The notes under the pieces: model-generated
Database searches by the model: none
The model's input: the letters and a program-made list of their open reading frames with translations, nothing else
Told to the model about the DNA's origin: nothing
NCBI GenBank assembly: GCA_016788905.1
Contig: JAEURZ010000003.1
Coordinates: forward strand, 39,262 to 103,261
From: Elusimicrobiota bacterium
GTDB lineage: Bacteria > Elusimicrobiota > Elusimicrobia > FEN-1173
Direction of reading: 5' to 3'
DNA length: 64,000 nt
Position numbers and translations under genes: made by a program
Shown: positions 12,691 through 32,036 of the stretch, piece by piece
Numbering within the stretch: the first letter of the stretch is position 1
Layout: every line of letters starts with the position of its first letter

Positions 12691-12838
12691 GGTGTTCCGA
12701 TAGATTCCCAGAAGAGCCATCGATCACAGTTTTTGGCGTTTTAGCCGATAAGTTATAAAATCCCTCTTGAAGGGGATGGCCCACGGGGAGACGTGTGCCC
12801 TTAAAATCTTTAGCGGAGAGCGACGAAGGGAGAAACCA

Positions 12839-16389: not shown

Positions 16390-19300
16390 ATGTTGATCCT
16401 TCCCGGTCAATTCAAAAGGGTGACGGTTGCCATTCTTTCCGTTTCCCTGTTTTTTTCTCAATGTCTTTTTGCCTACCAATCTGAAAATGGATTTTGGGAA
16501 GACCGGCGGAGAGCCACCCAGCGGCAATCTCCAACCCAATTGGCCTCCCGGTCCATGGGATCTCCTTCCCTGGGAGGGGGCGCATTGGCCCCTGTTCCGA
16601 TCCTCAATTCTTCTCTTTCCTCTAACGTTTCGAAATCACTTCCGAAAAGTTTTTTAAAAGACCACGCCAACCTTTTGGCGGTGCTGTCTCCCGCATTTGG
16701 AAATATCCGAAAAGTATCTCTCGGGCACCCCTCTCCCTTTTCCGGCCCCGTGGTCATTCATATTCAAGACGTTCATATGAATCAAGAGGCCCAGTGGAAT
16801 ATCCGCGAAACGGTTCGATCGTTAATTCAGTCGGGCCAGGTGGGCTTGGTGGCTTTGGAAGGAGCCACAGAGGAACTGAACCTCCAACCTTTTGTGGATT
16901 TTCCCTATCGAAGAGCCGTTAAGTCAACGGCGGATTACCTCCTCAAGCAGAACAAAATCACCGGCCCCATTCACGCGGCTTTCACCGCAACGGGAAAACT
17001 GCCTCTCCTACGCGGAATTGATGATCCTGCCCACTATCAAGCCAACGTCCAGGCCTACAAAGATTCCGCTCCGCGGTTGCTGAAAATGCGCGAAGAAGTC
17101 CACGTTTTATCGATTCAGATCGAAGCTGAGAAAGGAGTTGTTTTTTCTCCCACCTTACGTGCGTTTGACCAGAAAGTCCGAGCTTACAGGGCAGAAAAAA
17201 TGGCCCTGGGGGACTATGTTCGGACCCTCATGGAAGTGGGGGGCGATTCTCCTGTCCCAATCGCCCTCCGCCATTTTGGCGAGGCGTTGGAAATGGAACG
17301 CACACTCAACTTCTCTCAGGTGGAGCTTGAGCGGGCCAAGGTAATCGAAGGACTAACGCAAAAACTGGATCCTCAAGAAACCAAAACGATGATGGCCCTA
17401 AGCCTGGCTTATCGGGCCGGGCAACTCAACTACGCCGAATTTTATACGCAATTGAGGGAAACGTGCCGGGCGAAGGGGCTCTCCTTGTCGAATTATCCTG
17501 CCCTGGATGCCTACGTTCGCTATGTGCTTCTGGCTGAGGGAATCGATGCTGAACAGTTATTGGAAGAGATCTCGATCCAGGAAAAACGTGCCTATGATCG
17601 ATTGGCGGCAACGTCGGAAGAAAAAGATTTGATCGCCCGGTCCCGTGAACTCTGGTTAACCGAAAAGTTGTTGGATTTTTCCCTGACACCAGCGGAATGG
17701 AAAGAATACGATACCACCGTTTCCAGGCCGGGGCGGGAGAATCTGCTTTCGTTCGAGTCGTTCTATCGGGAAGCCCATGCCCGTGACGGCGCCATGGCGG
17801 ATAATCTCCTGAACGCTGTGGGGCAAATGCCCCAGGGGAAAAGGGTCTCCATCTTGGTTACCGGTGGATATCACGCGGAAGGGATTGCCAAAAAATTAAC
17901 AGAAAGTGGAACCACGGTCATTTCCTACGTTCCGAAAATCGAAAAAATTGACACGACCCAGGGATCGGCCTACCTCAGTGTTTTCAGTCAAGAGAAATCC
18001 CCATTGGAAAAGCTGTTTTCTGGGAATAAATTATTCTTAGGCATCAACCCTGCGGCGGGTGTGCCGTCAGCGGCTGTGTTGTCTTCGTCTTTAGCCCAGT
18101 TGGAAGGAATTGCTTCGGAGGACCTGGAAAAAATATCTGGCTATGTAAATGAATTTCACCCGGGCATGAAATTATCACTTAAAGATCCTCATCAAATGCC
18201 GGACAGTGGATGGATGGCTGAGGTCCATGTTCAGGTCGGGGACGAAGAAAAGAGTTTTACGCTCATAACAGATCACGAATTCCGTATTAAATCATTCAAC
18301 TTAACCGAAAATGAGGAACGCCCGCCTTTCGCTTGGCTTACGGAAGTTCTCATCCCTGTTCATCACTTTCTCCAGGGCCACGCGGTCAACTTATGGCTCC
18401 GTGAAGGGAAATCCCCTGAGAGTTTTCAATCTTCATTCTTGGCTGCCCGTGAAACTTCCCTTTCTCGTTTAGTTAAGCAAACCTTGGCGGCGCGCAAATT
18501 ACTCCGATCACAAATAAATGCTAACGGAAGGGCGACCGGCTGGATGGGGGTGGGGATTTCTTGGGGGATCGGAGCGGGGGTGGGATTCGTTCGAAAGTGG
18601 TGGGGGAAAACTGAAAAAGGGGAAACCCCTTTCTCCTACGCAAGGCATTTTGTTTCCTGGAATCGGGGATTAAACGCGTCTCGTTCGGAAGATGGGGTGA
18701 ACGCCTTGGTGTCTGTTTCGGCGGGAGGGTTGGCGGGGCAGACGTGGATGGGTATGGCGTTGGACCCTTCTTTTCTTTTTGTGTGTATTTGGTTTTTGTT
18801 GTTTGTGGCGTCGCACTATGAGAAAAGAACAGGCGAAGGGAAAAAATCCTCGCTTGAAAAGCTAACCGGGCAGGCCCCCAGTTTCAGCAAAGCCATACAA
18901 TTGTTCGGGTTTTATCTTCTTCCCCTTTCGTCCTCGGTGTACATGGGGGCGTCTTCGGTGCCCCTGGGCTGGATTCTTTTGGTGGTCTTCCTCTATTTTC
19001 TTCTCATTCGGCGGGTGCATGATCAGATCAATAAAGAAAATGGGGTTCATTTAGGGGCATGGGGAACCTATTCCAATTTCCTTTTCCCAGCGTCAGCGGC
19101 CTACTGGTATGCGCGGTGGAGCGGGAAGGACGCCCAGGAGGCCCATGGGATCGGTCGGAAATGGATCTTTCTGGAAGGGGTCCCGTTGATTGGTTTGATA
19201 CTGATGGGTGGCTTATCTTCAGGTTTGGGAGAAGAAAGCGTGCTCTGGTTCGGTATCGATCCCGTTTTGGGGTCTTTGGCTCTTTTAGGGCACTTTGGGA

Positions 19301-21858
19301 TTGCCTGGGGTCGATTCGCAATGATGGCCCGGGTGGAAACGATGCAAGGGGAATCCCCACCGGCGGTGGGGGCCGTGACGCGTTACCTTATTTTGTTTGG
19401 ATTGTTCTTGGTCCCCGGAGGTCTCTTCATTGGGTTGTTCGTTAACTTGGTCGTGGCTCTTTTGCAATGGGACGCGGATGGGCGCGTTCCTTCTACTAAA
19501 ACACCCTGGTCTCCGGAAATCACACGAAAAGGGTATCAGATCCACTTGGTCGACTCGGATCAGTTGGAGGGATCACAGGATAAATGGCTTTCGGTCCGGG
19601 CGGTCATCACGCGAATTGGCCCTGACGGTGAGATCCAGTACCTGTTGGTGAAAAACCCTAGTGATCGATGGGAGTTTCCGGGCGGGGGAGGGGCTGAGGG
19701 GGAGTCTCCCACAGAGGCATTGAAAAGAGAACTGAAAGAAGAATTGGGGGAGCCGTTTGCACAGGATGTGGTCCAATTTCTTACCGAAACAAATGAAAAT
19801 AAAAAAAATAAACCGTTAATTACTCATGATTTAATGAAACCCAATAAAAATAAAGAATATAGATCAGTTTATCTTGAAATTTTCCCCCTAAATAAAAAGA
19901 AACACTCTTCTGTCCATATTAATGATGAGTCTTTGAGTAGTCGTTGGTTGAGTTACGAGAGAATGAAAATTGAACTCCCTTCGTTGACATTGGCGACGCG
20001 GATGTCGTTTCTCCCCGAAGTTTTTTTGCGCGAGTTTGGGATTGAAGGAGTGGTGTCCATGTCGCCTTTATTTGGCGACCCAGGAGCGCTATTGGTTGAA
20101 ACAAAAACAAAGAACTATGTGTTTCGCAAAGCGGGGAAAGATGCGTCAGAAGCCGCTTTTAATTCGGCGGTTCAAGCACATCTTTTTAAGAACGGAATTC
20201 TGGTGAGAGAATTAATTAAACGGCAGGGTTCGGAAGAGAGTGAAGAGAAATTTATTTTAAGGTTAGGAAATGTTCCGTTTGTTTTGGAACGTTACGGGGA
20301 TGAGGGCGAACCCATTAAAAAATCCGACGCTGAGGAAAAACACTATATTGCGTTAGGAGCATTGGCCGCTCAAGTTCAAAAGGCTTTAAAAAGTTTCCCA
20401 AAGAATTTGAGTCCAGATCGAAGACTCCCACGGTTTGAGGAAATGGTGAATCCAACGGTGGTGCTGGGTCTCAGCTTCTGGAATGTGGGTTTTTCGATTA
20501 ACGAGGATGGTTCTGTTTCTGTTTCGCGAATTCGTGTATTCGACCGTCCCCATTGGGGAGATCGGCTTGAAGAAATAGTGAATCTAGCGTTTGAAGTTGA
20601 AGCCCCCGGTTTACTTCAAGAACTTGTTACTGCGTATGCTTATCAAATTAATCCGGAACTGACCGATTCGGAGGTCCGTTCTTTAAATGGACCGAATCAG
20701 AAAGCGAACATGAGAGTAGCGTTTAGTGGGTATATGGCCGCAAAAAGGTTGGCTGATGAAAGGATTAATAACGCAAAAAAAATGTCGCCTTCTTCTCTTT
20801 CTTGGTTTTGGATGAATTTTCCATCCCACGTAAGCATTTTAGATGACCTCCTACGGAAAGCGCCCTGGGAATCGGTGTTTTTGGTTGTGGGAATGGGTGG
20901 CGCTGTCATGGCCAATTTGTTGCTGGGAGCTTCGATTTTTTGGGTTTTGGCGGCGTCCCTATTGGCCGGGGTGTTGGGGTATTCTCATACCTGGGGAACT
21001 TATGGGTTTGTGGATGGAAAAATGAAACGGGTTGTGGGAGCCCTGTCTGGGAACAAAGCCGTTTCCTGGTGGCTCTGGACATCAATCTTTGGGGCTCTCT
21101 TGTTGGGGGTGGGGCCGATGGTTCCGGCCGAAGCGCTTGGGTGGGTTCTGGGTGGCGGTACTTGGGCGGCGGCTTGGGTTGGGGTCGTTGTTCACCGGCG
21201 GGGGAACCGGGAATGGCTGGTGGATCATTTGGACAACGGGAACTTGACCCCGGCTCAGAAAAATATCGCCCGGGATATTTTAAAGAATTTGGAACAGCGA
21301 CCCATCCGGCTCGGGGTGGAGGAGTTTCGGGCCATGGTCATGCAAACGGCGGAAACCTATTCCCGTGGACAGGGAAGTCTTGCCATCGATGTTCATGCCC
21401 CAGCGGCGTCGCTTGGCCAGGGGATAAAGCTGTATTTTGTGGATCCTGTGGCGGTTCGTTCTTCCGAGAATGTGGAAAAATTGACATGGATGATGAAAGC
21501 GGACAAGAATCTTTATGTGGTTGCGGGCAATTCAATCGATGGTTTGCCCAGTGATCGTGTCCTTGTGGTGGAGGGGGCTTTCCAATCGGTGGGGGGGAAA
21601 GACAACCCTCTCTTTGATGTGTCTTTGAAAGAAGTCCGAGTTCCGATCCTTGATCGATTTAAAAATCCGTCGTTCCGAATTCTCCAAACACCGCTGATCC
21701 AGTTGAATGGTGACAACTTGGTACCAGAGGATCCACTCCTTGTTGCGTCTAAGAATGCTCTGATTTTCATCCTGGAATCCATGCGGGCGTTCCCGTCCAC
21801 CGCGTTTCACTGGGGTGATGTATTGCACGTTTATCGGGCTTTGGCGGAATCGGCTTAA
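16390..21858 (+). CDS. giant multi-domain membrane protein 1 (1822 aa): signal peptide, TIKI/TraB-like N-domain, polytopic TM region, Nudix hydrolase box, C-terminal TM + soluble domains
   Basis: Signal-like 'VTVAILSVSLFFSQCLFA'. N-domain motifs 'VVIHIQDVHMN' and 'ARDGAMADNLL...VTGGYHAEGI'. Nudix box 'GGGGAEGESPTEALKRELKEELGE'. Multiple hydrophobic helices. N-terminal 550 aa is paralogous to the downstream giant gene. Confidence 0.75.
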   Translation: MLILPGQFKRVTVAILSVSLFFSQCLFAYQSENGFWEDRRRATQRQSPTQLASRSMGSPSLGGGALAPVPILNSSLSSNVSKSLPKSFLKDHANLLAVLSPAFGNIRKVSLGHPSPFSGPVVIHIQDVHMNQEAQWNIRETVRSLIQSGQVGLVALEGATEELNLQPFVDFPYRRAVKSTADYLLKQNKITGPIHAAFTATGKLPLLRGIDDPAHYQANVQAYKDSAPRLLKMREEVHVLSIQIEAEKGVVFSPTLRAFDQKVRAYRAEKMALGDYVRTLMEVGGDSPVPIALRHFGEALEMERTLNFSQVELERAKVIEGLTQKLDPQETKTMMALSLAYRAGQLNYAEFYTQLRETCRAKGLSLSNYPALDAYVRYVLLAEGIDAEQLLEEISIQEKRAYDRLAATSEEKDLIARSRELWLTEKLLDFSLTPAEWKEYDTTVSRPGRENLLSFESFYREAHARDGAMADNLLNAVGQMPQGKRVSILVTGGYHAEGIAKKLTESGTTVISYVPKIEKIDTTQGSAYLSVFSQEKSPLEKLFSGNKLFLGINPAAGVPSAAVLSSSLAQLEGIASEDLEKISGYVNEFHPGMKLSLKDPHQMPDSGWMAEVHVQVGDEEKSFTLITDHEFRIKSFNLTENEERPPFAWLTEVLIPVHHFLQGHAVNLWLREGKSPESFQSSFLAARETSLSRLVKQTLAARKLLRSQINANGRATGWMGVGISWGIGAGVGFVRKWWGKTEKGETPFSYARHFVSWNRGLNASRSEDGVNALVSVSAGGLAGQTWMGMALDPSFLFVCIWFLLFVASHYEKRTGEGKKSSLEKLTGQAPSFSKAIQLFGFYLLPLSSSVYMGASSVPLGWILLVVFLYFLLIRRVHDQINKENGVHLGAWGTYSNFLFPASAAYWYARWSGKDAQEAHGIGRKWIFLEGVPLIGLILMGGLSSGLGEESVLWFGIDPVLGSLALLGHFGIAWGRFAMMARVETMQGESPPAVGAVTRYLILFGLFLVPGGLFIGLFVNLVVALLQWDADGRVPSTKTPWSPEITRKGYQIHLVDSDQLEGSQDKWLSVRAVITRIGPDGEIQYLLVKNPSDRWEFPGGGGAEGESPTEALKRELKEELGEPFAQDVVQFLTETNENKKNKPLITHDLMKPNKNKEYRSVYLEIFPLNKKKHSSVHINDESLSSRWLSYERMKIELPSLTLATRMSFLPEVFLREFGIEGVVSMSPLFGDPGALLVETKTKNYVFRKAGKDASEAAFNSAVQAHLFKNGILVRELIKRQGSEESEEKFILRLGNVPFVLERYGDEGEPIKKSDAEEKHYIALGALAAQVQKALKSFPKNLSPDRRLPRFEEMVNPTVVLGLSFWNVGFSINEDGSVSVSRIRVFDRPHWGDRLEEIVNLAFEVEAPGLLQELVTAYAYQINPELTDSEVRSLNGPNQKANMRVAFSGYMAAKRLADERINNAKKMSPSSLSWFWMNFPSHVSILDDLLRKAPWESVFLVVGMGGAVMANLLLGASIFWVLAASLLAGVLGYSHTWGTYGFVDGKMKRVVGALSGNKAVSWWLWTSIFGALLLGVGPMVPAEALGWVLGGGTWAAAWVGVVVHRRGNREWLVDHLDNGNLTPAQKNIARDILKNLEQRPIRLGVEEFRAMVMQTAETYSRGQGSLAIDVHAPAASLGQGIKLYFVDPVAVRSSENVEKLTWMMKADKNLYVVAGNSIDGLPSDRVLVVEGAFQSVGGKDNPLFDVSLKEVRVPILDRFKNPSFRILQTPLIQLNGDNLVPEDPLLVASKNALIFILESMRAFPSTAFHWGDVLHVYRALAESA

Positions 21859-21887: not shown

Positions 21888-24800
21888 ATGGAAAAAATGA
21901 CTTTTCTGCCAAAATTAAATCCGATATTGCGTCATTTGAGTGTGATCCTTTATGTGTGCACTCAAGTGGTATTTACGCATGCCGCTGAATCCGGATTTTG
22001 GGAGGAACGTCGCAAAAGCCGATCTCTCATTGGCTCAACGTATGCGGCGCTTCCAACGTCCTCCCTCCCTGGGATGGAACGAGTGACTAAAAATCTCGGT
22101 ACGTTGTCGGCCTCTCTCCATTCTTCCATTTCAAACCTCGGTGGCCATGCCCCTTTATCTCACGTCATTCGAGCCATTCCCCACGAATTAGGAAGCATTC
22201 GGAATATTTACCCACCCCAATCTCCCGAAAACCCAATCGTTGTCCTTCTTCAGGACGTCCATTGGAATATCGACGCCCAAAGGAATTTGAGCCGTTTGAT
22301 TCAAGAATTATCTTCTTTCCAATGGAAGGATGGAAAAAGCACAGAAATGGTTCTGGCTCTGGAAGGGGCATTTGGCGCCATCGATATCTCCGCCTTTAGG
22401 AACTACGGTCACCCGACGATTTTGAGGCGAGTCGCTGATCGGTTACTATTGGATCGCCGCATTGCTGGGCCGCTCCATGGACTTCTATCGGGGGAAAAAA
22501 TTCCCGCCCGCATTGTGGGCGTGGATGATCGGCGTCATTACCAGTCCAACGTCATGGCTTACCGCACCGCCATTCCGCATCAAAAAAGCCTCCGCAATCA
22601 ACTTTTCCAAAAACGAAGAGAGTTCGTTAAGCGTCAGAATACCGTTTTCAGCAAAGGCCTCAAATCCTTTGATTATGAGGCACGGTCCTACCACGAGGGG
22701 AAAAAGAGCTTAAGCCATTATTCCCGTATTCTGGCGAGCACGTATTCGGGAAATAAACAAACGTTCGCGCGAGAGAACCCCACCCTGTCCATTTTCCTTC
22801 AAGCGGTGGAGATGGAATCTTCTCTTGATTTCAATCGGGTTGAACGAGAACGCGGGCAATGGCTCAATCAATTGACCCATTTTTTATCAGCGGAAGGAAG
22901 AAATTCCTTAATTGAAGCTGGCATCTCTTATCGATTGGGACAGATTAGTTTGTCGGATTTTTATCAACACCTCATTGCGGTGGGTGGCACGAGGGCCCCT
23001 TTGGCAAATTTCCCAGCGATGGCGGCCTATACCAATTACGTGCTTTTAGGGGAACGGGTGGACCCAGGGAAACTTTTCGAAGAAGTCACCCGGTTGGAAA
23101 CGGCTCTCTATGACCGGTTGGCGGAAAGCCAAGAGGCAAAAGCCTTGGTCAAGGACACTCGAGAGCTTGATCTTTCGCTCCGGTTGGTTGATTTCGCCCT
23201 CACTCCCCCAGAGTGGGAGGCTTATAAGCGTTGGGTGCCTGAAAATTCCAATTTGGAAATTTTTGAGCGGTTTTATAGGGAAGCAGAAGCGCGCGATGGG
23301 ACCATGGCGGGGGCCCTTCAGTCCAGTTTGATTTTGTCTAAAGGGAACAAGGGTCCACTCGGTCCCCGCCCAACGCCTGCGTTGGGGATTTTGGTGGCCG
23401 GGGGCTTTCACGGGGAGGGAATAACGAAACGATTGGTGAACGCAGGGATCGGGGTGATCACGGTGGTCCCCCGAATTAAAACGTTGGATGACAAACCGGG
23501 GCTGGCCTTGTCTGTCTTTACCCAAGATCGGACCCCGCTTGAAAAACTCGTGTCTGGGGAAAAATTGTTCCTTTCAGAACCGGTGTTTGATCCCTCACGC
23601 CAAGCGTTGACCGCACTGGCCTGCGCCGCCACGGGGGCGGCGGATGGTCTCGCCATACCCCCCGGTGAAATCTCCAATCTATTACCTACCCCATTGGCCG
23701 ATCTTCCCACCCAAGTTCAGACACCATCCCCCCATACGGGTGTGGTCTCGATCCAAGCGAGAGGTGGCGAAGTCACCGTTACTTCAACACTTGAAAATCA
23801 AGGAGGACAGATCCTCTCCCTCACTGAATCCCAGGCGGGAAGAGGATTGCCCCAACCCGAACCCCTTCGCGGGTATTCCTGGGAACAATTGGTTGCGGCG
23901 ATGAGGCCCTTTATCGCCAGCGGGGGAAAAGACGAATCCTTTTATCGGGGGGTCGTATGGGATTTGATATTAGACCCTCGCCGGACCAAAAGACTGGGTC
24001 CGTTGCTCTCACGCCAAGCGGTGGACCCGGCACAGGCCATATCGGAATCCATCGACAACGGCCAAGATGGTGTTCTTCGACGGTTTGAACCGGATGTTCG
24101 GCCCGTCGGGCGACGCGGGGTGGGAGGGATTCAGATATTCAATGATCTCAAATCCAGCGCTGATCGCGTTGTCATTACTTCTTCCCGTGACGGGCTCAAT
24201 GGCGTTGAATTTACTTTCTGGAAAGAGGGCGGTGAAATTCGATTTACATATAAAATTCTTTATGTCTCCGAATGGGGAGACGAAAATATTAATGCTCTTT
24301 TGCCAGCCCTGTCAAAAGATATCGCCACGGAATTGGTTTTTCGCCTTCCTCAGGGGACGAAAATCGACGTTCGCTGCGCTCTTTCGGCCGAAGAAACGGG
24401 CCGCCGTCTATCCTTTGTGAGAAAAAAACTGCGCTTGAATACCCGTTCGCCTATCGACGTTAATGGGACGAATGTCGATCAAACAGGCGAATACAAACAC
24501 GGGGGCCTCACGCGTCCGGTATCGGCCACGGAATTGCCTCCCGTTCACGTCACCATCAACCCAAACGGATACTCGGTTACAGATGAGGGCATTGGCATGG
24601 GTTTGAAAGAGATGTTTGAGGACTATCTCTTCCCCTACAAGACAACCAAATCGATGACCACTCCCCATGGAGAAGTTGATTATTATTACAAACCGGGCTC
24701 CGGTCGGGAGACAACGATCGCATCGTTCATCCCATCGAGAGAAATTGAATCTCTCTCGCCCTCTCCGGAAGGGACTCCCCTCAACGTCATTCCGGAACTG

Positions 24801-27800
24801 TGCTTGGTCTTTCCCGATGGTGCCAACCTGACGGAAGATCGAGGGACCATTGACTTAGTGCCATCCGATCAACGCGTCACTTCCGAAATCGCGGGGATGA
24901 AGCGTTTGATTGACCGATGGACGAATCCAAGGCTTTCCATCGAAGAACGGTTTGCCCTACTGAACACTTTGGCCGTATTCTTAAGGGCAAAACAACCTCG
25001 GGCCGAGAAAGGGTTGACGAGGGACAATCTTCAAACCTGCACAGATCTCTTGTGGTATCTAAGCAAGAAAATCCTCCCTTTGTTAAAACAGGACAGGGAA
25101 CAAGGAAAGACGTTCCTTCCCAACACCGAGGAATGGCTTTCTTTTGAGGGGAAAAGCGGCGTCATTCTTTTGGATACAGATATTTTTGAACCGAACGCGG
25201 CGGATTTCATCGCTGCAGGGATGTCCGATGTAACGGAAAACCCACTGTGGGCTCCATTGGATAAGCGGATACGTCATTTTTATCTGGCGGATTTGAGCGC
25301 GGCCCCTGCGGTGATTCTCGTGGGCAGTGGGGAAACAGTTATTGTTGATCGGACTGTCTTTGAGCGAGAAAGTTCTGACCCGGAAATCCTGTTGGAGAGA
25401 ATTCGAAAAAGTATTGATACGGCCTGGGGAAAATCCAGCCAAACGTTAACAAAACAATCCCCTTCCAAAAAGTCTTGGGTTCAGAGGCATTCCCTCCGTA
25501 TCGCCTCCTTTTTTTTGGCCCTGCTGGTCGCCGCTTCGCTCTGGATGACCTGGACTGTTGATGGAAAATTTGAGAATGAACCGGTTGAATTCGTCCCCCA
25601 TCAGATGACTCTAACTCCTGGTGCGATCGGATGGTCAGCCCCCAGTTGGGTCGATTCGGAATGGTGGAGTTCGTTTTTCTCATTAGACAAGGAACTTAAA
25701 CCGCGCAAACCCTATGGACGGATCATCGGTTTAGTGGATTCTCCTTATCTGGTTAAAGGGTTTTACCCGCATCTTACTGGCGACGGTTCATTCAAATCAG
25801 CGGGCGACCTGACCTCCCGGATGGAGGGACCTTCTAAGTCAAAAATAAGCCTTATGGTCGCCGTAACAAAGGAAAGAAACGAATCCATCCCTTTGCTTGT
25901 TCCTTACCACGGACAAGTGGACGCCAAGAGCGTTAGAATCCATATCCCTGGAAGACCTGCGGAGGCCTTACCACTCGCATACGAATCGGGACAACCGGTG
26001 GTTCATCCTCTAACGAGAGGATCTTTTTCCCTCTCATGGGACGTTTGGGTGGCTGAGAAGCAATATTTTAGTTACCGAAACCTACCTCTACCACCCAAAG
26101 AAATCGAGAATTTCCCCTCCGAATGGGCAGCGGTCCTTGATCCTTTGCAATCCGCGCACGACGAAAAAAAACTTTCGGCCATTAAACATCTGATGGGACG
26201 CTATTTCGCCTACGATGCCGGTAAAACCTATGGATTTGATGGCACCAGTTGGGCCAGCACCGCTAAACCCTATTTGGAAAGAGGAGAACGAATTCCAATT
26301 GTCTGCAACACATCAACGTTATATTTTTATCTGATGGCGCGTTATGTGGGCCTTCCCGCCATATATGTCGAATTAGAAAATTCAGGAAGTGAGAATATCC
26401 TATACCGGGATCTGTCCGGCCACGCGCAGGTCGTCGTAAAAGTGGGATACGAATGGGTCGTGCTTGAAACGACCAATGTAATGCCTCTTGTCCAAAGAGC
26501 GTTTCCCTTAAAACCGAGTTCACTATGGGGAGATATTCAATCCCAAACTAAAAATTTAAATTTAATACTAATCGGTTTTTCTGGTTTTTTATTTTTTATG
26601 GCTCTATGGAAGGGGGGACCTCAATCAAAGGAATATTTTTCAAGGAATTATTTTAACCGGTTGAGATATTTTTTAAAAAACAGAGTTCATTTAAAGGGAT
26701 TCGATATACAGGTCTCCCCATGGGGAATGATCAAAAAAACCAGAACCACAAATCCTTTTGGAAATCCTTCGATTGAAACAGAAACTCATCTGGGTGTTCT
26801 TTATCAAACCAAAGGATCAACGTTTACCCCGTTGAAATATGAGCATGGCAAATCCGACTACTTTCTGTCTCTTAAAGGGGAATTCGAAGGCGTCATAATC
26901 AAATTAATATTTCTCTTGGTGTTCAGCGTCATCTTTGGATCAATTGGATGGGATATTTTGTCATCTTCATCGAATCTGACGACCCCGATCCTAATGGGAA
27001 TATCCATATGGATGTTGATCACCTTTTTGGTTTTGCATCGACTTCCTGTGTTAATTCGCCTCAATGAGAATGGATTAAAACTTGTTTCTGTTCCCTATCC
27101 AAAACGATTCGTTCCTGAGGTTTTAGAGGTTAAAGACGGCGCCTATTTGGATTTTGGGGGAGGTGATTTCTATTGGCTGGGACTTGAATCGGGTCACCTT
27201 AAGAAAATTGTTATTCCTGGACTTCGGGAAATTAAACCTGTTTCTAAACCCGGAGGGAAAGCCGCTTTAGTGGCATTGGTTAAAGATCAAAAAAATGGAT
27301 CCAGATTTATTGTATACGAACCCCAGGGGACTCATTTAAGGGAAGTATGGAGTATTCCCTCTCCCCCAAGCCTTGCCCCTCTGTATGATTGGAAATCATT
27401 ATACTTGTTCCCATCGAACCAATACGTCATTGCCTACCAAACCATCAATTCGGATATGACGGAATTCATTACTCTTGGCCAACCCATTCCGCCTATTCCG
27501 TCACAAATTCCGTTGAGGCATCTTTATCCATTTCAGAACAGTTTTATTAGTGAAGTGGGGAAAATCCCGATTTTTCCTGGGGATAGTCATCCGGAAATTA
27601 CACCTCGTCTGGATGGGAGACCGTATTACATCTTTTCAGACGATATTGTTGGGTTCCCAACAGGTGAGCGGGATGACGAGTCCAAATATTTAACTTTGTT
27701 CAATATTTGGTCGGGTGACCGGTTGGGGGAAATACCCATTCAAGGAATGGACAGCATCTATAACCCTATCGTTTTAATTGATAATACTGTTTTCAGATTA

Positions 27801-30800
27801 TCTCGCGCGACTGACGAAAAGGGATCCCCTAAACCCCAACTGCAAATCATCGATTCAACGGGGTATCGGTCCATTGACCTCGCCCCATGGGCAGGGCTTT
27901 CCAAAACTATTTCCGAGGTTTGTGCCAGAGTGACAGGGCATCCTCGAGATCTGTTTATCACCTTCGATGCTAGGCACAGCCAGATCTCCAAATACACGAG
28001 TGGTGAATATATAAATTCCGGCCTTCCCTTCTATTTCGGGTTCGACCGCCAAGACGGACTGACAATATTTGGAACGGAATTAAATCGTGTGTTTACCAAA
28101 TCTCCCTTGAAACCCCCGGAATTGAAAGAATTAAAGAAAAAATTGGATGGACCTGCCTTGGAATCCCTCGAGAACCGAATGTCGTATATGACAGAATGGC
28201 ATCCCCACGAATTGTTCATTCCCTGGGTGGATTCCACCATCCCACCGGATGTTAAAGATCGGTTGGATGGGGTGGCTCGCGAAAATCTAGAACGGCAGGA
28301 TTGGGTGCGGGAGGTTTGCCGCGCCCTATACGTTTTGAATCGAGACCCGGCTGGACAGGCAGGGCCAATTCTCAGACGTTACATGGACTTATTGGAGATG
28401 GATCCCGAATTGGAAGAAACCCTTCGCGAAAAACTCTTTACCCCTCAAACAATGCCTGGGGTTGACTATCCTATGGAGCCCATCGTTTTTTTATGGCGGT
28501 CGCCCAGCGAACAACCCCCTCTCCCTTTAGAGGTGGAATTTTTCCTGTCCCTGTTGTCGAAAGAATTCGAGGATATTTTGAAGTGGGAAACCGAAAGAGC
28601 CCCCACCTTCCCGACCGACATTGTCATAAACCCTTTAAGTGACGACCGTTCTTTGTCCCGGTTTTTGGGGGCCGCCCGAAAGACCTCAACAGAAGAGTTG
28701 GATGGCCCTGATGGGTTCTCAAAACTTAAGGACACCTACGATGAGTTAAGCCCCCAGGACCATGCCGCCCCATCTGAAATCGTGGGGCCAGCCAACAATC
28801 AGGGGCTGGCCGAACCGTTGTGGCTGCGGGAACTGGTACAAAACGCTCGGGATGCGGTAAGAGAAGCCCGCCGAACCGGGGCTTTATTACAAGATCCGGC
28901 CATACGAATGGGAAGTTATTTGAACCGAGAAGGAGAGCGTCCTCGTCTGGTCGTTAGCGTTAAAGACGGGTTAGGAATGTTTTTAAGCCGTTTGGTCAAA
29001 AAGGTGTTGGACCCGGACGAAACGACAAAGACCTTAGCGGACGATCTGCTGGAACAACTGAGAAAGGGAACGGACACCACCACCCGCACGCAAGGGGTTA
29101 TCGACACGCTCGTGCAACCGGAAAAACGTGACGATGCGGCCCTCCGCCAGGCGATCCAGGAGCAGATTGAGGGCAATGAAATTAATGAAGCGTTGGCGCG
29201 GAGAATGGCGGATGCGTTTTCGTTGGACATGACTCCCACCAGCTCGGGGTTTATTGGGATTGGTTTCTTTACAGCTTTTCAGGCCGATGAAGTCATGGTG
29301 CGAACGGGGCGCGGTGGCTCTCTTCATGAAATTAAATTGCGGACCGTGAGGGCGTCTGACGATAGGCGGATTGTGGACATTCAGCTCTTGTGGGCTCGAA
29401 AAATCTCGGATCCCCAGGGAAAGTATCAAGGAACGGATGTTCAATTGGGGTTCGATCTCCCACGAGAGGATGACCCCACCTTTGATCGTGAAGTGATTCG
29501 GGCCCGAATACGCAACGCCCATTTTCATTGGATGGCCATGAATTACCTCAGTGGGGTATCGGATGTGGACATCTATTGGAACGGCGTCAACCTACGGGAG
29601 TCCACCTCCCCAGGAGCGACTGTTGGGGAAATGGCCTCGGTTTTAGGATCCCGTCATCCCGGCCGCCTTTTGGTGGATGAACTCCGCATCCAAGAGCTCC
29701 CGAAAGCTCTCGTGTCCTTGGTCCCGACTTGGGTCCAACGGGTGTTGACCGAGGAAGGTGTTAACATTAAGTACCCCCGCACCCGGTCCTTCGTTCGAAC
29801 ACGACGCGCCATCCAATCCCCGGAAAACGATGCGCGTCCCATGGCCCTCTTGGCCCTGCGCACGGTCTATGTTCATTGGCGCAACGGAGGAGTGGTGGAC
29901 GGGTTGCCGCCTTATGAGGAGTATCGCCTCCAATCACCGTGGAACAGTTATCCGGCGGATGAAAACGTTCGGAGGGATGCGGCGTTCCTCTTGCAGACGA
30001 ACGGGAGCAAGGACGGTCAGGAGGAGTTTTGGGGCCGGTTTGAAAAGGAGTATCTATCGGCTCGGGGACGTTGGGTCCAACTTATGCTGGAAGTGGCTGA
30101 TGATCGAGACGCCTTCTATCGTCAAGCTCTGCCCCACGAGTTTTCAACCGCATTGGATGCCGCCCGGGAAAAGGGTGTATTGCTCGGTCTTTCCCCTGCC
30201 CGGGCGCCTCCCGCTTCCTCCGACGATTTGAGTCGGCGCGTTCTTCGTCCTCACCTGGCACGCTGGGCACGGCTCTTTCTCGAAGGACGGGTGAATATCG
30301 AAGGTCGTTCGGTGAGAGAATGGGCCGGTGTAACACCATCTGGAGAGGACTGGACTCAATCCCTATGGCAAGTTGTTCCCGAAGGGGCCACCCTTCCTCT
30401 TTCTCAGATCGTGGCGACCATGGACCCAACCGCGACCCCTGTTTTGGCTGAGGACACAACACAAATGGAATTATCGATTCGGGCCCTCTCAGAGGCAGGG
30501 AGCGTTTTTGCGGCGCGGTTGCCCCTTCCTCCCACCCACATGATGATCGACGAACGCCTCTTGTGGGCCTTAAAACTTTTTTTACTCAAAAATGAACTGT
30601 CTCCTCTATTGGACGCATTTTTGATGACGCTCGGGCGGCATAAGAATGGGTCAGCCGTCTCCTTTTACGAGCAATGCTTGCGTGAAGGGTTGGATAAAGC
30701 CGACCTGAAACGAAGGTTGGTGTCCCTGGGTAATATTTCCGACATCGACGCGTCCATTGATCACCAGATCCAACTCTTACGCGAAAACCCGACCCATCAG

Positions 30801-32036
30801 CTGGATACCTTACTGAAACCCAATGTTTCGTCCTCCTCCACGGTCCTTCCTGGGATGATTCCTGCGTTTACCCGGGCGCTTCTTTACCGGTTTGTGAAAT
30901 GGTTTGGCGCAAAGCGGGGAACATCCTTCTATGTGAAATGGGGATCGGCTTTTTCCGAGGGTGTCACTGTCCTAGGACTTCCTTTGCTCTTGATGGAGAT
31001 CGGGGGAGGGGTATTTAATCCCCTCTCTGCGCCAATGATTTTTTGGCTGATGTACGCCTCTGGAAAATTATTGTTCGTGCGGGCCCACCCCCAGGGGAAC
31101 AGCTTATTTTACGGGATGGCTTTTGCGCCAGTGGGAGTGGCGTTCTTTGTTGTGATGTTTCTGGGCTTATCGGTTCCCGGGATCCTTCTTATCGTCGCGT
31201 CGGAAGTGGTTCCCCATGTTCGCAACAACACCGCCTATTGGCATAGGTTAAGTCCAGGAGAACGATTGGCTTTGGAGGTTTCCGCCGCTCAGGACGCCCT
31301 TGCCCGTGGGGTCCGTGTTCGTGATGCGGATGAGCTCAGAGAGGAAACCTTTCAATTGTTGCTGGGTGCGGATTCCCTTGGCCAGCGTTGGACCCATCAC
31401 CTGCGCGTGGAGGACATCTCTTTGGAACAATCCCGTTTTAAAGAGAAGTATGGGCAGGTCCAACGGGAGGTCTTTTCTCCCCAAATGCCGCGTTCTTTGA
31501 GGGAAACCGTGTTGGAACAATTATTTCGAAAAATGGGACCGGCTCAACGTTTTGAATCCATGTGGGGGGAAGAAGATTCGTCCACGAATGCTGTTTTGAT
31601 TTTGTTGGACGAATTCCGAACCAACCAATTGGAGGAAATTGTTACTAAGGCTATTCAGGTCTCTCTCCAGCAGAAAAAACAATTGCTTTGGGTCGCTGAA
31701 AATAGGCCCCTCAAACTCCGGGCCGAGGCTCTTCTTCGAGATCGGGGGATTTTCGTTCAAATCCCACTCTTGAACGATGGAACCGATTTTGTTCGTGTGG
31801 GACGATTGGGGAGAGTCAACGACGGAGCCCTTGAACAACTCACCCAGCCCCAACGGAAAGATAAAGTGATCAGACAACTCTCCATCTGTTTGGGGGAAGA
31901 ATGGACGATCCAAAAAACAACCCAGGAATCCTTGTTCCAAAACGCGAATATCTTTTTCTTCGATCGCTGGCTTTCTGTTCATAAACTACTGGAAGAAGGA
32001 CAGCGCCTCGCCCACTTCATTGCTCAAATGGCGTAG
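21888..32036 (+). CDS. giant multi-domain membrane protein 2 (3382 aa): signal peptide, TIKI/TraB-like N-domain, transglutaminase-like Cys-protease core, TM segments, Hsp90/sacsin-type GHKL ATPase, C-terminal polytopic region
   Basis: Signal-like 'LSVILYVCTQVVFTHA'. N-domain 'IVVLLQDVHWN', 'ARDGTMAGAL...VAGGFHGEGI'. TGase-like 'VCNTSTLYFYLMARYVGLPAIYV...GHAQVVVKVGYEWVVLETTN'. GHKL boxes 'RELVQNARDA', 'VKDGLGM', 'SSGFIGIGFFTAFQADEVMV'. Many TM helices. Confidence 0.75.
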   Translation: MEKMTFLPKLNPILRHLSVILYVCTQVVFTHAAESGFWEERRKSRSLIGSTYAALPTSSLPGMERVTKNLGTLSASLHSSISNLGGHAPLSHVIRAIPHELGSIRNIYPPQSPENPIVVLLQDVHWNIDAQRNLSRLIQELSSFQWKDGKSTEMVLALEGAFGAIDISAFRNYGHPTILRRVADRLLLDRRIAGPLHGLLSGEKIPARIVGVDDRRHYQSNVMAYRTAIPHQKSLRNQLFQKRREFVKRQNTVFSKGLKSFDYEARSYHEGKKSLSHYSRILASTYSGNKQTFARENPTLSIFLQAVEMESSLDFNRVERERGQWLNQLTHFLSAEGRNSLIEAGISYRLGQISLSDFYQHLIAVGGTRAPLANFPAMAAYTNYVLLGERVDPGKLFEEVTRLETALYDRLAESQEAKALVKDTRELDLSLRLVDFALTPPEWEAYKRWVPENSNLEIFERFYREAEARDGTMAGALQSSLILSKGNKGPLGPRPTPALGILVAGGFHGEGITKRLVNAGIGVITVVPRIKTLDDKPGLALSVFTQDRTPLEKLVSGEKLFLSEPVFDPSRQALTALACAATGAADGLAIPPGEISNLLPTPLADLPTQVQTPSPHTGVVSIQARGGEVTVTSTLENQGGQILSLTESQAGRGLPQPEPLRGYSWEQLVAAMRPFIASGGKDESFYRGVVWDLILDPRRTKRLGPLLSRQAVDPAQAISESIDNGQDGVLRRFEPDVRPVGRRGVGGIQIFNDLKSSADRVVITSSRDGLNGVEFTFWKEGGEIRFTYKILYVSEWGDENINALLPALSKDIATELVFRLPQGTKIDVRCALSAEETGRRLSFVRKKLRLNTRSPIDVNGTNVDQTGEYKHGGLTRPVSATELPPVHVTINPNGYSVTDEGIGMGLKEMFEDYLFPYKTTKSMTTPHGEVDYYYKPGSGRETTIASFIPSREIESLSPSPEGTPLNVIPELCLVFPDGANLTEDRGTIDLVPSDQRVTSEIAGMKRLIDRWTNPRLSIEERFALLNTLAVFLRAKQPRAEKGLTRDNLQTCTDLLWYLSKKILPLLKQDREQGKTFLPNTEEWLSFEGKSGVILLDTDIFEPNAADFIAAGMSDVTENPLWAPLDKRIRHFYLADLSAAPAVILVGSGETVIVDRTVFERESSDPEILLERIRKSIDTAWGKSSQTLTKQSPSKKSWVQRHSLRIASFFLALLVAASLWMTWTVDGKFENEPVEFVPHQMTLTPGAIGWSAPSWVDSEWWSSFFSLDKELKPRKPYGRIIGLVDSPYLVKGFYPHLTGDGSFKSAGDLTSRMEGPSKSKISLMVAVTKERNESIPLLVPYHGQVDAKSVRIHIPGRPAEALPLAYESGQPVVHPLTRGSFSLSWDVWVAEKQYFSYRNLPLPPKEIENFPSEWAAVLDPLQSAHDEKKLSAIKHLMGRYFAYDAGKTYGFDGTSWASTAKPYLERGERIPIVCNTSTLYFYLMARYVGLPAIYVELENSGSENILYRDLSGHAQVVVKVGYEWVVLETTNVMPLVQRAFPLKPSSLWGDIQSQTKNLNLILIGFSGFLFFMALWKGGPQSKEYFSRNYFNRLRYFLKNRVHLKGFDIQVSPWGMIKKTRTTNPFGNPSIETETHLGVLYQTKGSTFTPLKYEHGKSDYFLSLKGEFEGVIIKLIFLLVFSVIFGSIGWDILSSSSNLTTPILMGISIWMLITFLVLHRLPVLIRLNENGLKLVSVPYPKRFVPEVLEVKDGAYLDFGGGDFYWLGLESGHLKKIVIPGLREIKPVSKPGGKAALVALVKDQKNGSRFIVYEPQGTHLREVWSIPSPPSLAPLYDWKSLYLFPSNQYVIAYQTINSDMTEFITLGQPIPPIPSQIPLRHLYPFQNSFISEVGKIPIFPGDSHPEITPRLDGRPYYIFSDDIVGFPTGERDDESKYLTLFNIWSGDRLGEIPIQGMDSIYNPIVLIDNTVFRLSRATDEKGSPKPQLQIIDSTGYRSIDLAPWAGLSKTISEVCARVTGHPRDLFITFDARHSQISKYTSGEYINSGLPFYFGFDRQDGLTIFGTELNRVFTKSPLKPPELKELKKKLDGPALESLENRMSYMTEWHPHELFIPWVDSTIPPDVKDRLDGVARENLERQDWVREVCRALYVLNRDPAGQAGPILRRYMDLLEMDPELEETLREKLFTPQTMPGVDYPMEPIVFLWRSPSEQPPLPLEVEFFLSLLSKEFEDILKWETERAPTFPTDIVINPLSDDRSLSRFLGAARKTSTEELDGPDGFSKLKDTYDELSPQDHAAPSEIVGPANNQGLAEPLWLRELVQNARDAVREARRTGALLQDPAIRMGSYLNREGERPRLVVSVKDGLGMFLSRLVKKVLDPDETTKTLADDLLEQLRKGTDTTTRTQGVIDTLVQPEKRDDAALRQAIQEQIEGNEINEALARRMADAFSLDMTPTSSGFIGIGFFTAFQADEVMVRTGRGGSLHEIKLRTVRASDDRRIVDIQLLWARKISDPQGKYQGTDVQLGFDLPREDDPTFDREVIRARIRNAHFHWMAMNYLSGVSDVDIYWNGVNLRESTSPGATVGEMASVLGSRHPGRLLVDELRIQELPKALVSLVPTWVQRVLTEEGVNIKYPRTRSFVRTRRAIQSPENDARPMALLALRTVYVHWRNGGVVDGLPPYEEYRLQSPWNSYPADENVRRDAAFLLQTNGSKDGQEEFWGRFEKEYLSARGRWVQLMLEVADDRDAFYRQALPHEFSTALDAAREKGVLLGLSPARAPPASSDDLSRRVLRPHLARWARLFLEGRVNIEGRSVREWAGVTPSGEDWTQSLWQVVPEGATLPLSQIVATMDPTATPVLAEDTTQMELSIRALSEAGSVFAARLPLPPTHMMIDERLLWALKLFLLKNELSPLLDAFLMTLGRHKNGSAVSFYEQCLREGLDKADLKRRLVSLGNISDIDASIDHQIQLLRENPTHQLDTLLKPNVSSSSTVLPGMIPAFTRALLYRFVKWFGAKRGTSFYVKWGSAFSEGVTVLGLPLLLMEIGGGVFNPLSAPMIFWLMYASGKLLFVRAHPQGNSLFYGMAFAPVGVAFFVVMFLGLSVPGILLIVASEVVPHVRNNTAYWHRLSPGERLALEVSAAQDALARGVRVRDADELREETFQLLLGADSLGQRWTHHLRVEDISLEQSRFKEKYGQVQREVFSPQMPRSLRETVLEQLFRKMGPAQRFESMWGEEDSSTNAVLILLDEFRTNQLEEIVTKAIQVSLQQKKQLLWVAENRPLKLRAEALLRDRGIFVQIPLLNDGTDFVRVGRLGRVNDGALEQLTQPQRKDKVIRQLSICLGEEWTIQKTTQESLFQNANIFFFDRWLSVHKLLEEGQRLAHFIAQMA

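Follow-up and report, generated by a model that had tools for sequence, protein, structure and literature searches.

Does the very large membrane protein encoded at this locus contain a genuine transglutaminase-like enzyme and, if so, where and on what might it act? Within the window (the whole 64,000-nucleotide stretch of DNA that was analysed, from an uncultured Elusimicrobia bacterium), one open reading frame of 10,149 nt encodes a protein of 3,382 residues, designated giant protein 2. A sequence-only reading had singled out a peptide encoded at 26295-26480 as a candidate transglutaminase-like core. The translation contains this peptide as described, 'PIVCNTSTLYFYLMARYVGLPAIYVEL...SGHAQVVVKVGYEWVVLETTN', as residues 1470-1531, with nucleotide 26295 being the first base of the Pro1470 codon and nucleotide 26480 the last base of Val1531. 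Giant protein 2 is also encoded, without any difference, on an independent Logan contig, and an Elusimicrobia metagenome-assembled genome (MAG) at NCBI encodes MBL8023032.1, a copy that falls into its 90%-identity cluster. The public copies that we looked up all carry the name "hypothetical protein". NCBIfam gave no match for either the module described below or the whole protein, PADLOC (anti-phage defence) gave none for giant protein 2, and PHROGs (phage proteins) gave none for the module. As detailed below, this 3,382-residue membrane protein carries a real, so far unannotated TgpA-like domain of the transglutaminase/cysteine-protease type. The enzyme fold is a known one; the domain is a divergent representative of it, and the giant protein around it is an unusual setting. 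The host gene and the parts of the domain are as follows.

21888..32036, forward strand: giant open reading frame of 3,382 aa (giant protein 2), host of the domain (open reading frame list and translation)
25710..26072, forward strand: beta-sandwich subdomain of the TgpA-like module, residues ~1275-1395
26094..26495, forward strand: transglutaminase-like (papain-fold) catalytic core, residues ~1403-1536 (PF01841 match; profile matches to 4xz7, 9crn and 3isr; model; fold searches)
26100..26102, forward strand: Glu1405 codon, third invariant residue of the family (32/32, motif 'LP..E..D.P')
26304..26306, forward strand: Cys1473 codon (tgc), predicted nucleophile (invariant, 32/32; N-terminus of model helix 214-227)
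26421..26423, forward strand: His1512 codon (cac), predicted general base (invariant, 32/32; start of model strand 253-260)
26466..26468, forward strand: Glu1527 codon (gaa), predicted third triad residue (column Glu 26, Asp 5, Ser 1; n = 32)

The interval 26295-26480 lies inside the catalytic core.

With the query alone, the Pfam Transglut_core profile (PF01841) reached 19.1 bits (E = 0.0016), short of its gathering cut-off, which is 23 bits. The match (E = 0.0016-0.0028) covers profile positions 43-107 of 108, which form the catalytic part, and the full-length homologue P0080 scores 26.7 bits. The profile match anticipated by the sequence-only reading was thus obtained for the catalytic part and, above the cut-off, for a homologue, but the query by itself stayed below it. 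Of the query and its 31 homologues, aligned as 32 domain segments, 7 matched PF01841 at E ≤ 0.01 (best E = 1.7e-6), indicating that Pfam's model overlooks most of the subfamily. In the translation, the Cys and the 'GLPA' motif are spaced as in the canonical motif, and so are the His and the acid. A single-sequence search of solved structures returned noise only, and the profile built from the 32-sequence alignment matched the solved transglutaminase-like proteins 4xz7 (E = 1e-4), 9crn (TglA; E = 0.004) and 3isr (E = 0.11), with the Cys, His and acid columns aligned. Because the Transglut_core match, which is below the cut-off at E = 0.0016-0.0028, is accompanied by an invariant Cys and His and by profile matches that align Cys with Cys and His with His, we conclude that it is not due to chance.

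The full HMMER scan yielded 34 matches, 31 of which are true homologues (best E = 3e-43 to 1e-35). P0062, P0067 and P0068 were rejected as family members and left out of the alignment; they match only a beta-sandwich stretch of about 45 residues, which occurs as 12-19 tandem repeats. Word-indexed searches with residues 1150-1600 and 1545-1990 recovered no sequence at all, giant protein 2 itself included, and are therefore no sign of an orphan segment. In the resulting alignment of the query and 31 homologues, the mean column identity is 23%, and only three columns are invariant, namely Glu1405, Cys1473 and His1512. In TglA, Cys1473 is aligned with the Cys of 'VCNGYA' and Glu1527 with the Asp of 'VDVT'; in 4xz7, the corresponding residues are the Cys of 'MCVGFS' and the Asp of 'IDGT'. 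His1512 is aligned with the 'HAW' or 'HAT' of solved transglutaminases. Canonical, characterised transglutaminases have Asp as their third triad residue. Glu is also accepted at this position in papain-like enzymes (PMC10318531). The putative catalytic Cys and His, whose conservation had been suggested as a check, are retained in all 32 sequences, and the third position carries Glu (26 sequences), Asp (five) or Ser (one). At the level of sequence conservation, the family therefore possesses the Cys-His-acid triad of the transglutaminase-like superfamily.

The AlphaFold model of the module has a pLDDT of 92.2 and a pTM of 0.88. In the model numbering, C214 starts helix 214-227, H253 starts strand 253-260, and E268 follows strand 263-267. 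A nucleophilic Cys at a helix N-terminus is universal among papain-like enzymes (PMC10318531), and the model exhibits a papain-like alpha/beta core in which a helix begins with the Cys and the sheet after it bears the His. In the Foldseek search, the best structural match was the TgpA entry 6g49, over the full length (E = 9e-9). The leading matches are transglutaminase-like proteins, and the lower-scoring ones include unrelated beta-sandwich folds. The modelled module also shows the two-subdomain fold of PDB 6G49 / 6G4H. The fold of the module, as modelled, is TgpA-like and homologous to the periplasmic domain of Pseudomonas aeruginosa TgpA. Profile match, triad conservation, model and fold match together support the transglutaminase-like core that had been proposed from the letters of the DNA.

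TgpA (PA2873) is an inner-membrane protein of P. aeruginosa, whose periplasmic transglutaminase domain corresponds to PDB 6G49 / 6G4H. Ca2+-independent transglutaminase activity of the isolated domain is a feature of the TgpA family. In TgpA, the domain forms a loop on the periplasmic side, with transmembrane helices before and after it, and shows transglutaminase activity in vitro (PMC3507681). The module of giant protein 2 resembles it in being a loop between transmembrane helices and in its predicted Cys-His-acid triad, whereas the sequence identity is only about 15% and the third triad residue is Glu instead of the Asp of TgpA. The five-helix N-terminal domain DUF3488 (PF11992) gave no Pfam match at E ≤ 1 anywhere in giant protein 2, and one helix precedes the module, compared with five in the DUF3488 of the TgpA family. 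Because PF11992 is missing and the preceding helix is single, giant protein 2 is regarded as a carrier of a TgpA-like module and not as a TgpA orthologue. The hosts also differ in size: giant protein 2 has 3,382 residues with Hsp90-like modules on both sides, whereas TgpA has about 670-690 (its length is given as both 668 and 688 aa; PMC3507681). Co-transcribed neighbours of the PA2875-PA2874 type, known from TgpA, were not evident around homologues of the module. Structural similarity to Streptococcus suis TGase (4XZ7), S. pyogenes TglA (9CRN) and a Cytophaga putative cysteine protease (3ISR) is much weaker than that to TgpA, and these proteins are soluble or secreted, without the flanking helices and the giant-protein context. 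The animal transglutaminases (TG2, TG3 and factor XIII) are remote, with 9-13% identity, and their four-domain architecture was not detected here.

Beyond the module, three conserved regions, two transmembrane helices and one compositional segment were delimited.

21945..23687, forward strand: N-terminal module, residues ~20-600 (BLAST mapping of matches)
23955..25442, forward strand: conserved module A, residues ~690-1185, with a weak resemblance to the N-terminal GHKL ATPase domain of Hsp90 (homologue conservation, profile)
25494..25559, forward strand: transmembrane helix upstream of the TgpA-like module, residues ~1203-1224 (Kyte-Doolittle hydropathy scan)
26553..26618, forward strand: transmembrane helix downstream of the TgpA-like module, residues ~1556-1577 (hydropathy scan)
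28695..30227, forward strand: conserved module C, Hsp90/TRAP1-like GHKL ATPase module, residues ~2270-2780 (profile, model, Foldseek)
25968..27857, forward strand: segment of low third-codon-position GC (GC3), 'AT-rich' (composition profile, GC by codon position, two-breakpoint likelihood fit)

Pfam detected neither module A nor module C in giant protein 2. The profile of module C matched HtpG at E = 5e-6 and TRAP1 at E = 6e-6, in register at the nucleotide-binding motifs N, G1 and G2 ('RELVQNARDA', 'DGLGM' and 'GFIGIGFF'). Its AlphaFold model (pLDDT 74) matched TRAP1 in Foldseek (E = 5e-8). These results indicate a Bergerat-fold, Hsp90-like module. For module A the support is weak; the best solved-structure matches of its profile are almost all Hsp90-family N-domains (best E = 6.7e-4). 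The order module A, transmembrane helix, TgpA-like module, transmembrane helix, module C recurs in proteins of about 2,350-2,410 residues from five Elusimicrobia genomes. The TgpA-like module is a constant component of these proteins, a conserved Elusimicrobia family of about 2,400 residues, and is bracketed there by two Hsp90-like GHKL modules. It also occurs in proteins of 400-800 residues. The locus search used the 8 closest sequences, the 32-sequence alignment being too divergent. No gene neighbours of the homologues were conserved, and thus the neighbours give no functional hint.

The N-terminal module is common to the upstream 1,822-aa protein (giant protein 1; 35% identical over residues 17-562) and to 47 other giant proteins. 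In the whole-protein search, all 47 matches are confined to the N-terminal ~600 residues, and phmmer and a motif regular expression found no TgpA-like module in these 47 giants; the weak phmmer matches in P0046 and P0047 proved on inspection not to be transglutaminase cores. These ~600 residues are shared by giants of Elusimicrobia, Omnitrophica and Chlamydiota, which carry NUDIX, PPDK_N, HAD, methyltransferase, SecA and HATPase-type domains and many transmembrane helices. Judged by repertoire, they are like the 'Archaeovorin' type described for Omnitrophota (bioRxiv 10.1101/2023.11.21.568195). Giant protein 2 is much shorter than the Omnitrophota giants, which have at least 7,000 aa and, in one case, 39,678 aa (bioRxiv 10.1101/2023.11.21.568195). 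A term count found the word 'transglutaminase' nowhere in the full text of that preprint.

An AT-rich block had been placed immediately downstream of the core. The block is real, but it begins upstream of the core (nt ~25968), and the core lies inside it. The best-fitting segment comprises codons ~1361-1990, with a GC3 of 0.40 versus 0.55 (log-likelihood ratio of the two-breakpoint fit, 20.7), and takes in the catalytic core and the non-conserved region with helices TM2-TM4. The steepest drop in GC (0.29) is located just downstream of the core, at codons 1541-1600. Homologous genes elsewhere lack a low-GC3 block. Residues 1540-2003 showed no homology to any of the fetched proteins. A foreign inserted domain is unsupported in this region; the orthologue-like P0051 has the same helix arrangement, although the sequences are not alignable.

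The side of the membrane on which the module resides was examined from the charges around the two helices. Four K/R residues precede the upstream helix and one follows it, and homologues share this bias. The downstream helix is followed by K/R-rich sequence, and in homologues by 4-6 K/R residues after the corresponding helix; roughly 8-10 homologues have K/R-rich flanks on the far sides of both helices. Counting helices from the N-terminus pulls the other way. The N-termini of giant protein 2 and of the ~2,400-residue homologues resemble Sec signal peptides, and several such proteins have no clear second helix before module A, so that the count places the module inside. Between its N-terminal module and TM1, the query has just one candidate helix, a weak one (residues 573-591, hydropathy 1.34), and if this segment does not span the membrane, the TgpA-like module would be cytoplasmic by helix count. 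Its substrates would then be cytoplasmic ones or the giant protein itself, an arrangement that we regard as unlikely. At both flanking helices, homologues consistently show a strong positive-inside bias, and a clear helix after the N-terminal module in P0061 and in most giants bearing that module restores a periplasmic count. Moreover, a cytoplasmic module would leave both Hsp90-like ATPase modules outside the cell, where ATP is absent. It would also disagree with the periplasmic location of the TgpA domain and with the family member P0081, in which a transmembrane helix is followed by the module and two LysM domains without any helix between the module and LysM. From this sequence evidence, the loop that carries the module probably faces the periplasm.

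We therefore consider it likely that residues ~1275-1536 constitute a two-part TgpA-like enzyme module, a beta-sandwich followed by the transglutaminase-like (papain-fold) catalytic core, which would perform Cys-His-Glu acyl chemistry on an envelope substrate in the periplasm. Cys1473, activated by His1512, which is in turn oriented by Glu1527, would attack a side-chain or isopeptide amide of the substrate, for which protein glutamine, a peptidoglycan peptide and a surface polymer are candidates. The attack would yield a thioester intermediate, which would go on to react either with an amine, giving cross-linking, or with water, giving protease, amidase or deamidase activity. The earlier suggestion of protease or cross-linking activity holds as far as the sequence reaches, but neither of the two is singled out. 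The same fold and triad might serve mainly a hydrolase and not a cross-linking transglutaminase. Such a hydrolase could be a protease, a deamidase or an isopeptidase for peptidoglycan or pseudomurein, and its target the envelope of the cell itself or of a neighbouring cell. This reading is a serious competitor, to which we give somewhat less than even chances. Between these possibilities we lean towards TgpA-like acyl transfer on envelope components.

The module might also be an autoprocessing protease that divides the giant precursor into smaller functional units. Autoprocessing has been suggested for peptidase domains of giant Omnitrophota proteins (bioRxiv 10.1101/2023.11.21.568195), and the papain fold is in wide use for self-cleavage. 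Here, however, it appears very unlikely, as there is no sign of a cleavage site, a periplasmic active site would reach only the periplasmic loops of its own chain, and the module also occurs in proteins of 400-800 residues. A catalytically dead domain with a structural or binding role, or a motif that resembles the core by chance, is hardly credible. Inactive transglutaminase-like domains are known, such as those of EPB42 and Rad4 (PMC10318531), but such domains lose their catalytic residues, whereas Cys and His are invariant here at a mean column identity of 23%. The single-sequence Pfam score below the cut-off would fit a chance motif, which is excluded by the fold match and the homologue E values, so that both versions are effectively refuted.

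The preferred reading of a periplasmic TgpA-like enzyme leaves room for a role of its neighbours in the chain. Speculatively, the cytoplasmic Hsp90-like modules may control or couple to the periplasmic module. The order Hsp90-like module, helix, TgpA-like module, helix, Hsp90-like module might then represent a trans-membrane machine, in which chaperone-type ATPase modules in the cytoplasm are covalently coupled to a periplasmic transglutaminase or isopeptidase, and ATP-driven changes inside gate the cross-linking or cutting of the envelope outside; we regard this as unlikely. For giant versions bearing the N-terminal module, the target of such a machine might be the wall of a neighbouring cell.

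That a large bacterial membrane protein contains a transglutaminase-like domain is by itself unsurprising. TgpA is essential in P. aeruginosa, and we know of no established physiological substrate for it. A distant but structurally clear relative of TgpA provides an independent comparative handle on the role of the module at the envelope. This relative is permanently joined in one chain with two Hsp90-like ATPase modules, and its phylum is uncultured and branches deeply. The finding moreover provides a testable enzymatic function for part of the giant Elusimicrobia/Omnitrophota proteins, a class that is "hypothetical" in public records.

The peptide that a sequence-only reading had assigned to a transglutaminase-like core is found in the translation of 21888..32036, where the Pro1470 codon starts at nucleotide 26295. 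The gene for this giant protein is real, and an independent Logan contig encodes an identical protein. An Elusimicrobia MAG at NCBI holds a copy in the same 90%-identity cluster (MBL8023032.1), designated "hypothetical protein" like all public copies that we looked up. The features of the gene and protein are as follows.

21888..32036, + strand: giant ORF, 10,149 nt, 3,382 aa (ORF list, translation)
21945-23687, + strand: N-terminal module, ~600 residues (BLAST mapping)
23955-25442, + strand: module A, Hsp90-like, residues ~690-1185 (weak profile match)
residues ~1203-1224: hydrophobic helix upstream of the TgpA-like module (TM1)
residues 1275-1395 (model 16-136): beta-sandwich of the TgpA-like module (AlphaFold2 model)
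residues 1403-1536 (model 144-277): alpha/beta core of the TgpA-like module (AlphaFold2 model)
26304-26306, + strand: Cys1473 codon, proposed nucleophile (translation)
26421-26423, + strand: His1512 codon, proposed base (translation)
26466-26468, + strand: Glu1527 codon, downstream acid (translation)
residues ~1556-1577: hydrophobic helix downstream of the TgpA-like module
28695-30227, + strand: module C, Hsp90/TRAP1-type GHKL, residues ~2270-2780 (profile, Foldseek)

The query alone matched Pfam Transglut_core at 14.9-19.1 bits (E = 0.034 to 0.0016, profile positions 43-107/108), which is below the gathering score of 23 and therefore suggestive; NCBIfam gave no match to it. Word-indexed protein searches with internal segments of the giant protein missed its own protein as well as the homologue P0051. 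Because the query's own protein was not returned, negatives from these searches were discounted. A full HMMER scan, run against 1.84 billion representative proteins, yielded 34 matches, P0051 among them; 31 of the 34 are true homologues of the ~265-residue domain (top E-values 3e-43 to 1e-35). The other three (P0062, P0067 and P0068) were excluded because their match is limited to a repeated beta-sandwich stretch. These proteins, otherwise unrelated to one another, carry 12-19 tandem repeats of ~80 residues that match ~45 residues of the beta-sandwich (query ~1333-1377), and an Ig-like repeat unit common to both is suggested.

In the alignment of the query with the 31 homologues (n = 32, mean column identity 23%), the only invariant columns are the three of Glu1405, Cys1473 and His1512. 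The third triad column holds Glu in 26 sequences, Asp in five and Ser in one, and divergent members have the canonical motif 'FDPT'. Glu1405 (26100-26102) belongs to an 'LP..E..D.P' motif located where the catalytic subdomain begins. PF01841 was matched at E<=0.01 by seven of the 32 aligned sequences, and one homologue, P0080, exceeds its cut-off at full length (26.7 bits). Against all PDB sequences, the alignment profile matched a Streptococcus suis TGase (4XZ7, E = 1e-4), S. pyogenes TglA (9CRN, E = 0.004) and a putative cysteine protease from Cytophaga (3ISR, E = 0.11); in the 4XZ7 and TglA alignments, Cys pairs with Cys, His with His and Glu with Asp. Although the query itself is sub-threshold, the homologue matches to PF01841, the triad conservation and the PDB matches bear out both the proposed core and the conservation of its Cys and His.

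The AlphaFold2 model built with this alignment is confident (pLDDT 92.2, pTM 0.88) and consists of two parts, the beta-sandwich and the alpha/beta core. In model numbering, helix 214-227 has the Cys at its N-terminus, strand 253-260 starts with the His, and the acid directly follows strand 263-267. A survey of papain-like enzymes treats such an arrangement as canonical and accepts Glu as a third residue (PMC10318531). By fold and triad, the module belongs to the transglutaminase-like superfamily. Most of its family is missed by Pfam, and neither the defence library PADLOC (against the giant protein) nor the phage library PHROGs (against the module) gave a match.

As BLAST mapping shows, the module is a constant component of a larger architecture that is itself conserved. 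P0051 (3,067 aa) aligns to query residues 117-1535 and 2003-2957, and four further homologues (P0052-P0055, ~2,350 aa) align to ~604-1538 and ~2100-2800. The same layout is present in proteins of 2,353-2,411 residues from five Elusimicrobia genomes; a sixth locus with the module is on a short contig labelled Planctomycetota. No conserved neighbour genes were found among these loci. The giant gene lies among ordinary chromosomal genes (including ADP-forming acetyl-CoA synthetase, NrfA-type cytochrome c552, an aminotransferase, radical SAM enzymes and tRNAs). Directly 5' of both large genes, on the same strand, is a 1,169-aa ORF (12767-16276, +) with no Pfam match, PADLOC match or predicted transmembrane helix.

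The module C profile matched HtpG (E = 5e-6) and TRAP1 (E = 6e-6). The N, G1 and G2 boxes line up in these alignments, with the module C motifs 'RELVQNARDA', 'DGLGM' and 'GFIGIGFF', and the model of module C (pLDDT 74) matched TRAP1 in Foldseek (E = 5e-8). For module A, whose order of motifs seems unusual, the profile gave weak matches (best E = 6.7e-4), mainly to Hsp90 N-domains. Pfam detected neither module in the giant protein. Other homologues place the TgpA-like module differently: P0081 has two LysM domains and a methyltransferase, P0080 a PEMT-like C-terminal membrane domain, and P0056 two copies of the module.

The N-terminal module also occurs, at 35% identity, in the upstream giant protein 1 (1,822 aa, 16390-21858), and is common to 47 giants of Elusimicrobia, Omnitrophica and Chlamydiota, which are 2,000-5,900 aa long. 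In these giants, very different enzymatic domains lie downstream of it (NUDIX, PPDK_N, HAD, methyltransferase, SecA and DnaJ), and this repertoire resembles that of the "Archaeovorin" giants (bioRxiv 10.1101/2023.11.21.568195); the term "transglutaminase" has zero occurrences in the full text of that preprint. The N-terminal module is mostly located between a signal-like N-terminal segment and a helix at ~600-800. Giant protein 1 weakly matched the Tiki/ChaN haem-binding family (Cofac_haem_bdg, 19.8 bits vs a cut-off of 27.7).

In the query and roughly 8-10 homologues, the helix upstream of the TgpA-like module has 3-7 Lys/Arg in its N-side flank and 0-1 in its C-side flank, and the pattern is reversed at the downstream helix. 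This positive-inside signature favours a periplasmic loop, as do three further points. TgpA is arranged alike, with its domain as a periplasmic loop between transmembrane helices (PMC3507681). In P0081, the order is TM, module and two LysM domains, with no helix in the module-LysM interval. With a periplasmic loop, the ATPase-type modules stay cytoplasmic. A single signal argues against such a loop: the N-termini of the query and of the ~2,400-residue homologues resemble Sec signal peptides, and the query has just one, weak candidate for a helix linking its N-terminal module to TM1 (residues 573-591, hydropathy 1.34). In P0061 and the majority of the other giants that carry the N-terminal module, a clear helix comes after it, so the number of membrane crossings again fits a periplasmic loop. 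The module probably faces the periplasm. Segment 573-591 (nt ~23604-23660) is weakly hydrophobic and Ala-rich ('ALTALACAATGAADGLAIP') where most relatives have the clear helix, and the topology of the entire giant protein depends on whether this segment crosses the membrane.

The core had also been placed directly before a ~1.4 kb AT-rich segment. An AT-rich block is real and more than an effect of amino-acid composition, with GC3 of 0.39-0.40 within and 0.54-0.55 outside. However, the best two-breakpoint fit sets it at codons ~1361-1990 (25968-27857), so the catalytic core lies inside the block, not before it. The GC minimum (0.29) is at codons 1541-1600, directly after the core. Residues ~1540-2000 aligned to no homologue; the helix pattern of P0051 is unchanged across this region. 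The GC dip is absent from homologous genes of high-GC Elusimicrobia. In the gene of giant protein 1, a block at 19600-20800 (GC3 0.40 vs 0.56) spans the NUDIX domain; both large genes have one low-GC3 block each, of ~1.2-1.9 kb. Such blocks may reflect a mosaic origin (recombination with a lower-GC relative) or locally relaxed constraint.

The TgpA-like fold, the triad with its Cys and His invariant and its acid conserved, the flanking helices and the conserved Hsp90-like fusion are established. The module would face the periplasm and form a thioester acyl-enzyme with the amide of an envelope substrate; this intermediate would then react either with an amine, which yields a cross-link, or with water. 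We lean towards TgpA-like acyl transfer, because TgpA is by far the nearest relative and, in isolation, the TgpA domain acts as a Ca2+-independent transglutaminase (PMC3507681). A hydrolase, e.g. an isopeptidase or deamidase, is nearly as likely, with precedents in PeiW/PeiP and WbmE. The module is not a TgpA orthologue, since the DUF3488 domain of TgpA was not found by Pfam in the giant protein, the identity is only ~15%, and the module has Glu where TgpA has Asp. Coupling of the module to the ATPase modules is speculation. The enzyme fold itself is familiar, and our literature search did not find the order Hsp90-like, TM, TgpA-like module, TM, Hsp90-like. This conserved order could bear on the unexplained essential role of TgpA.
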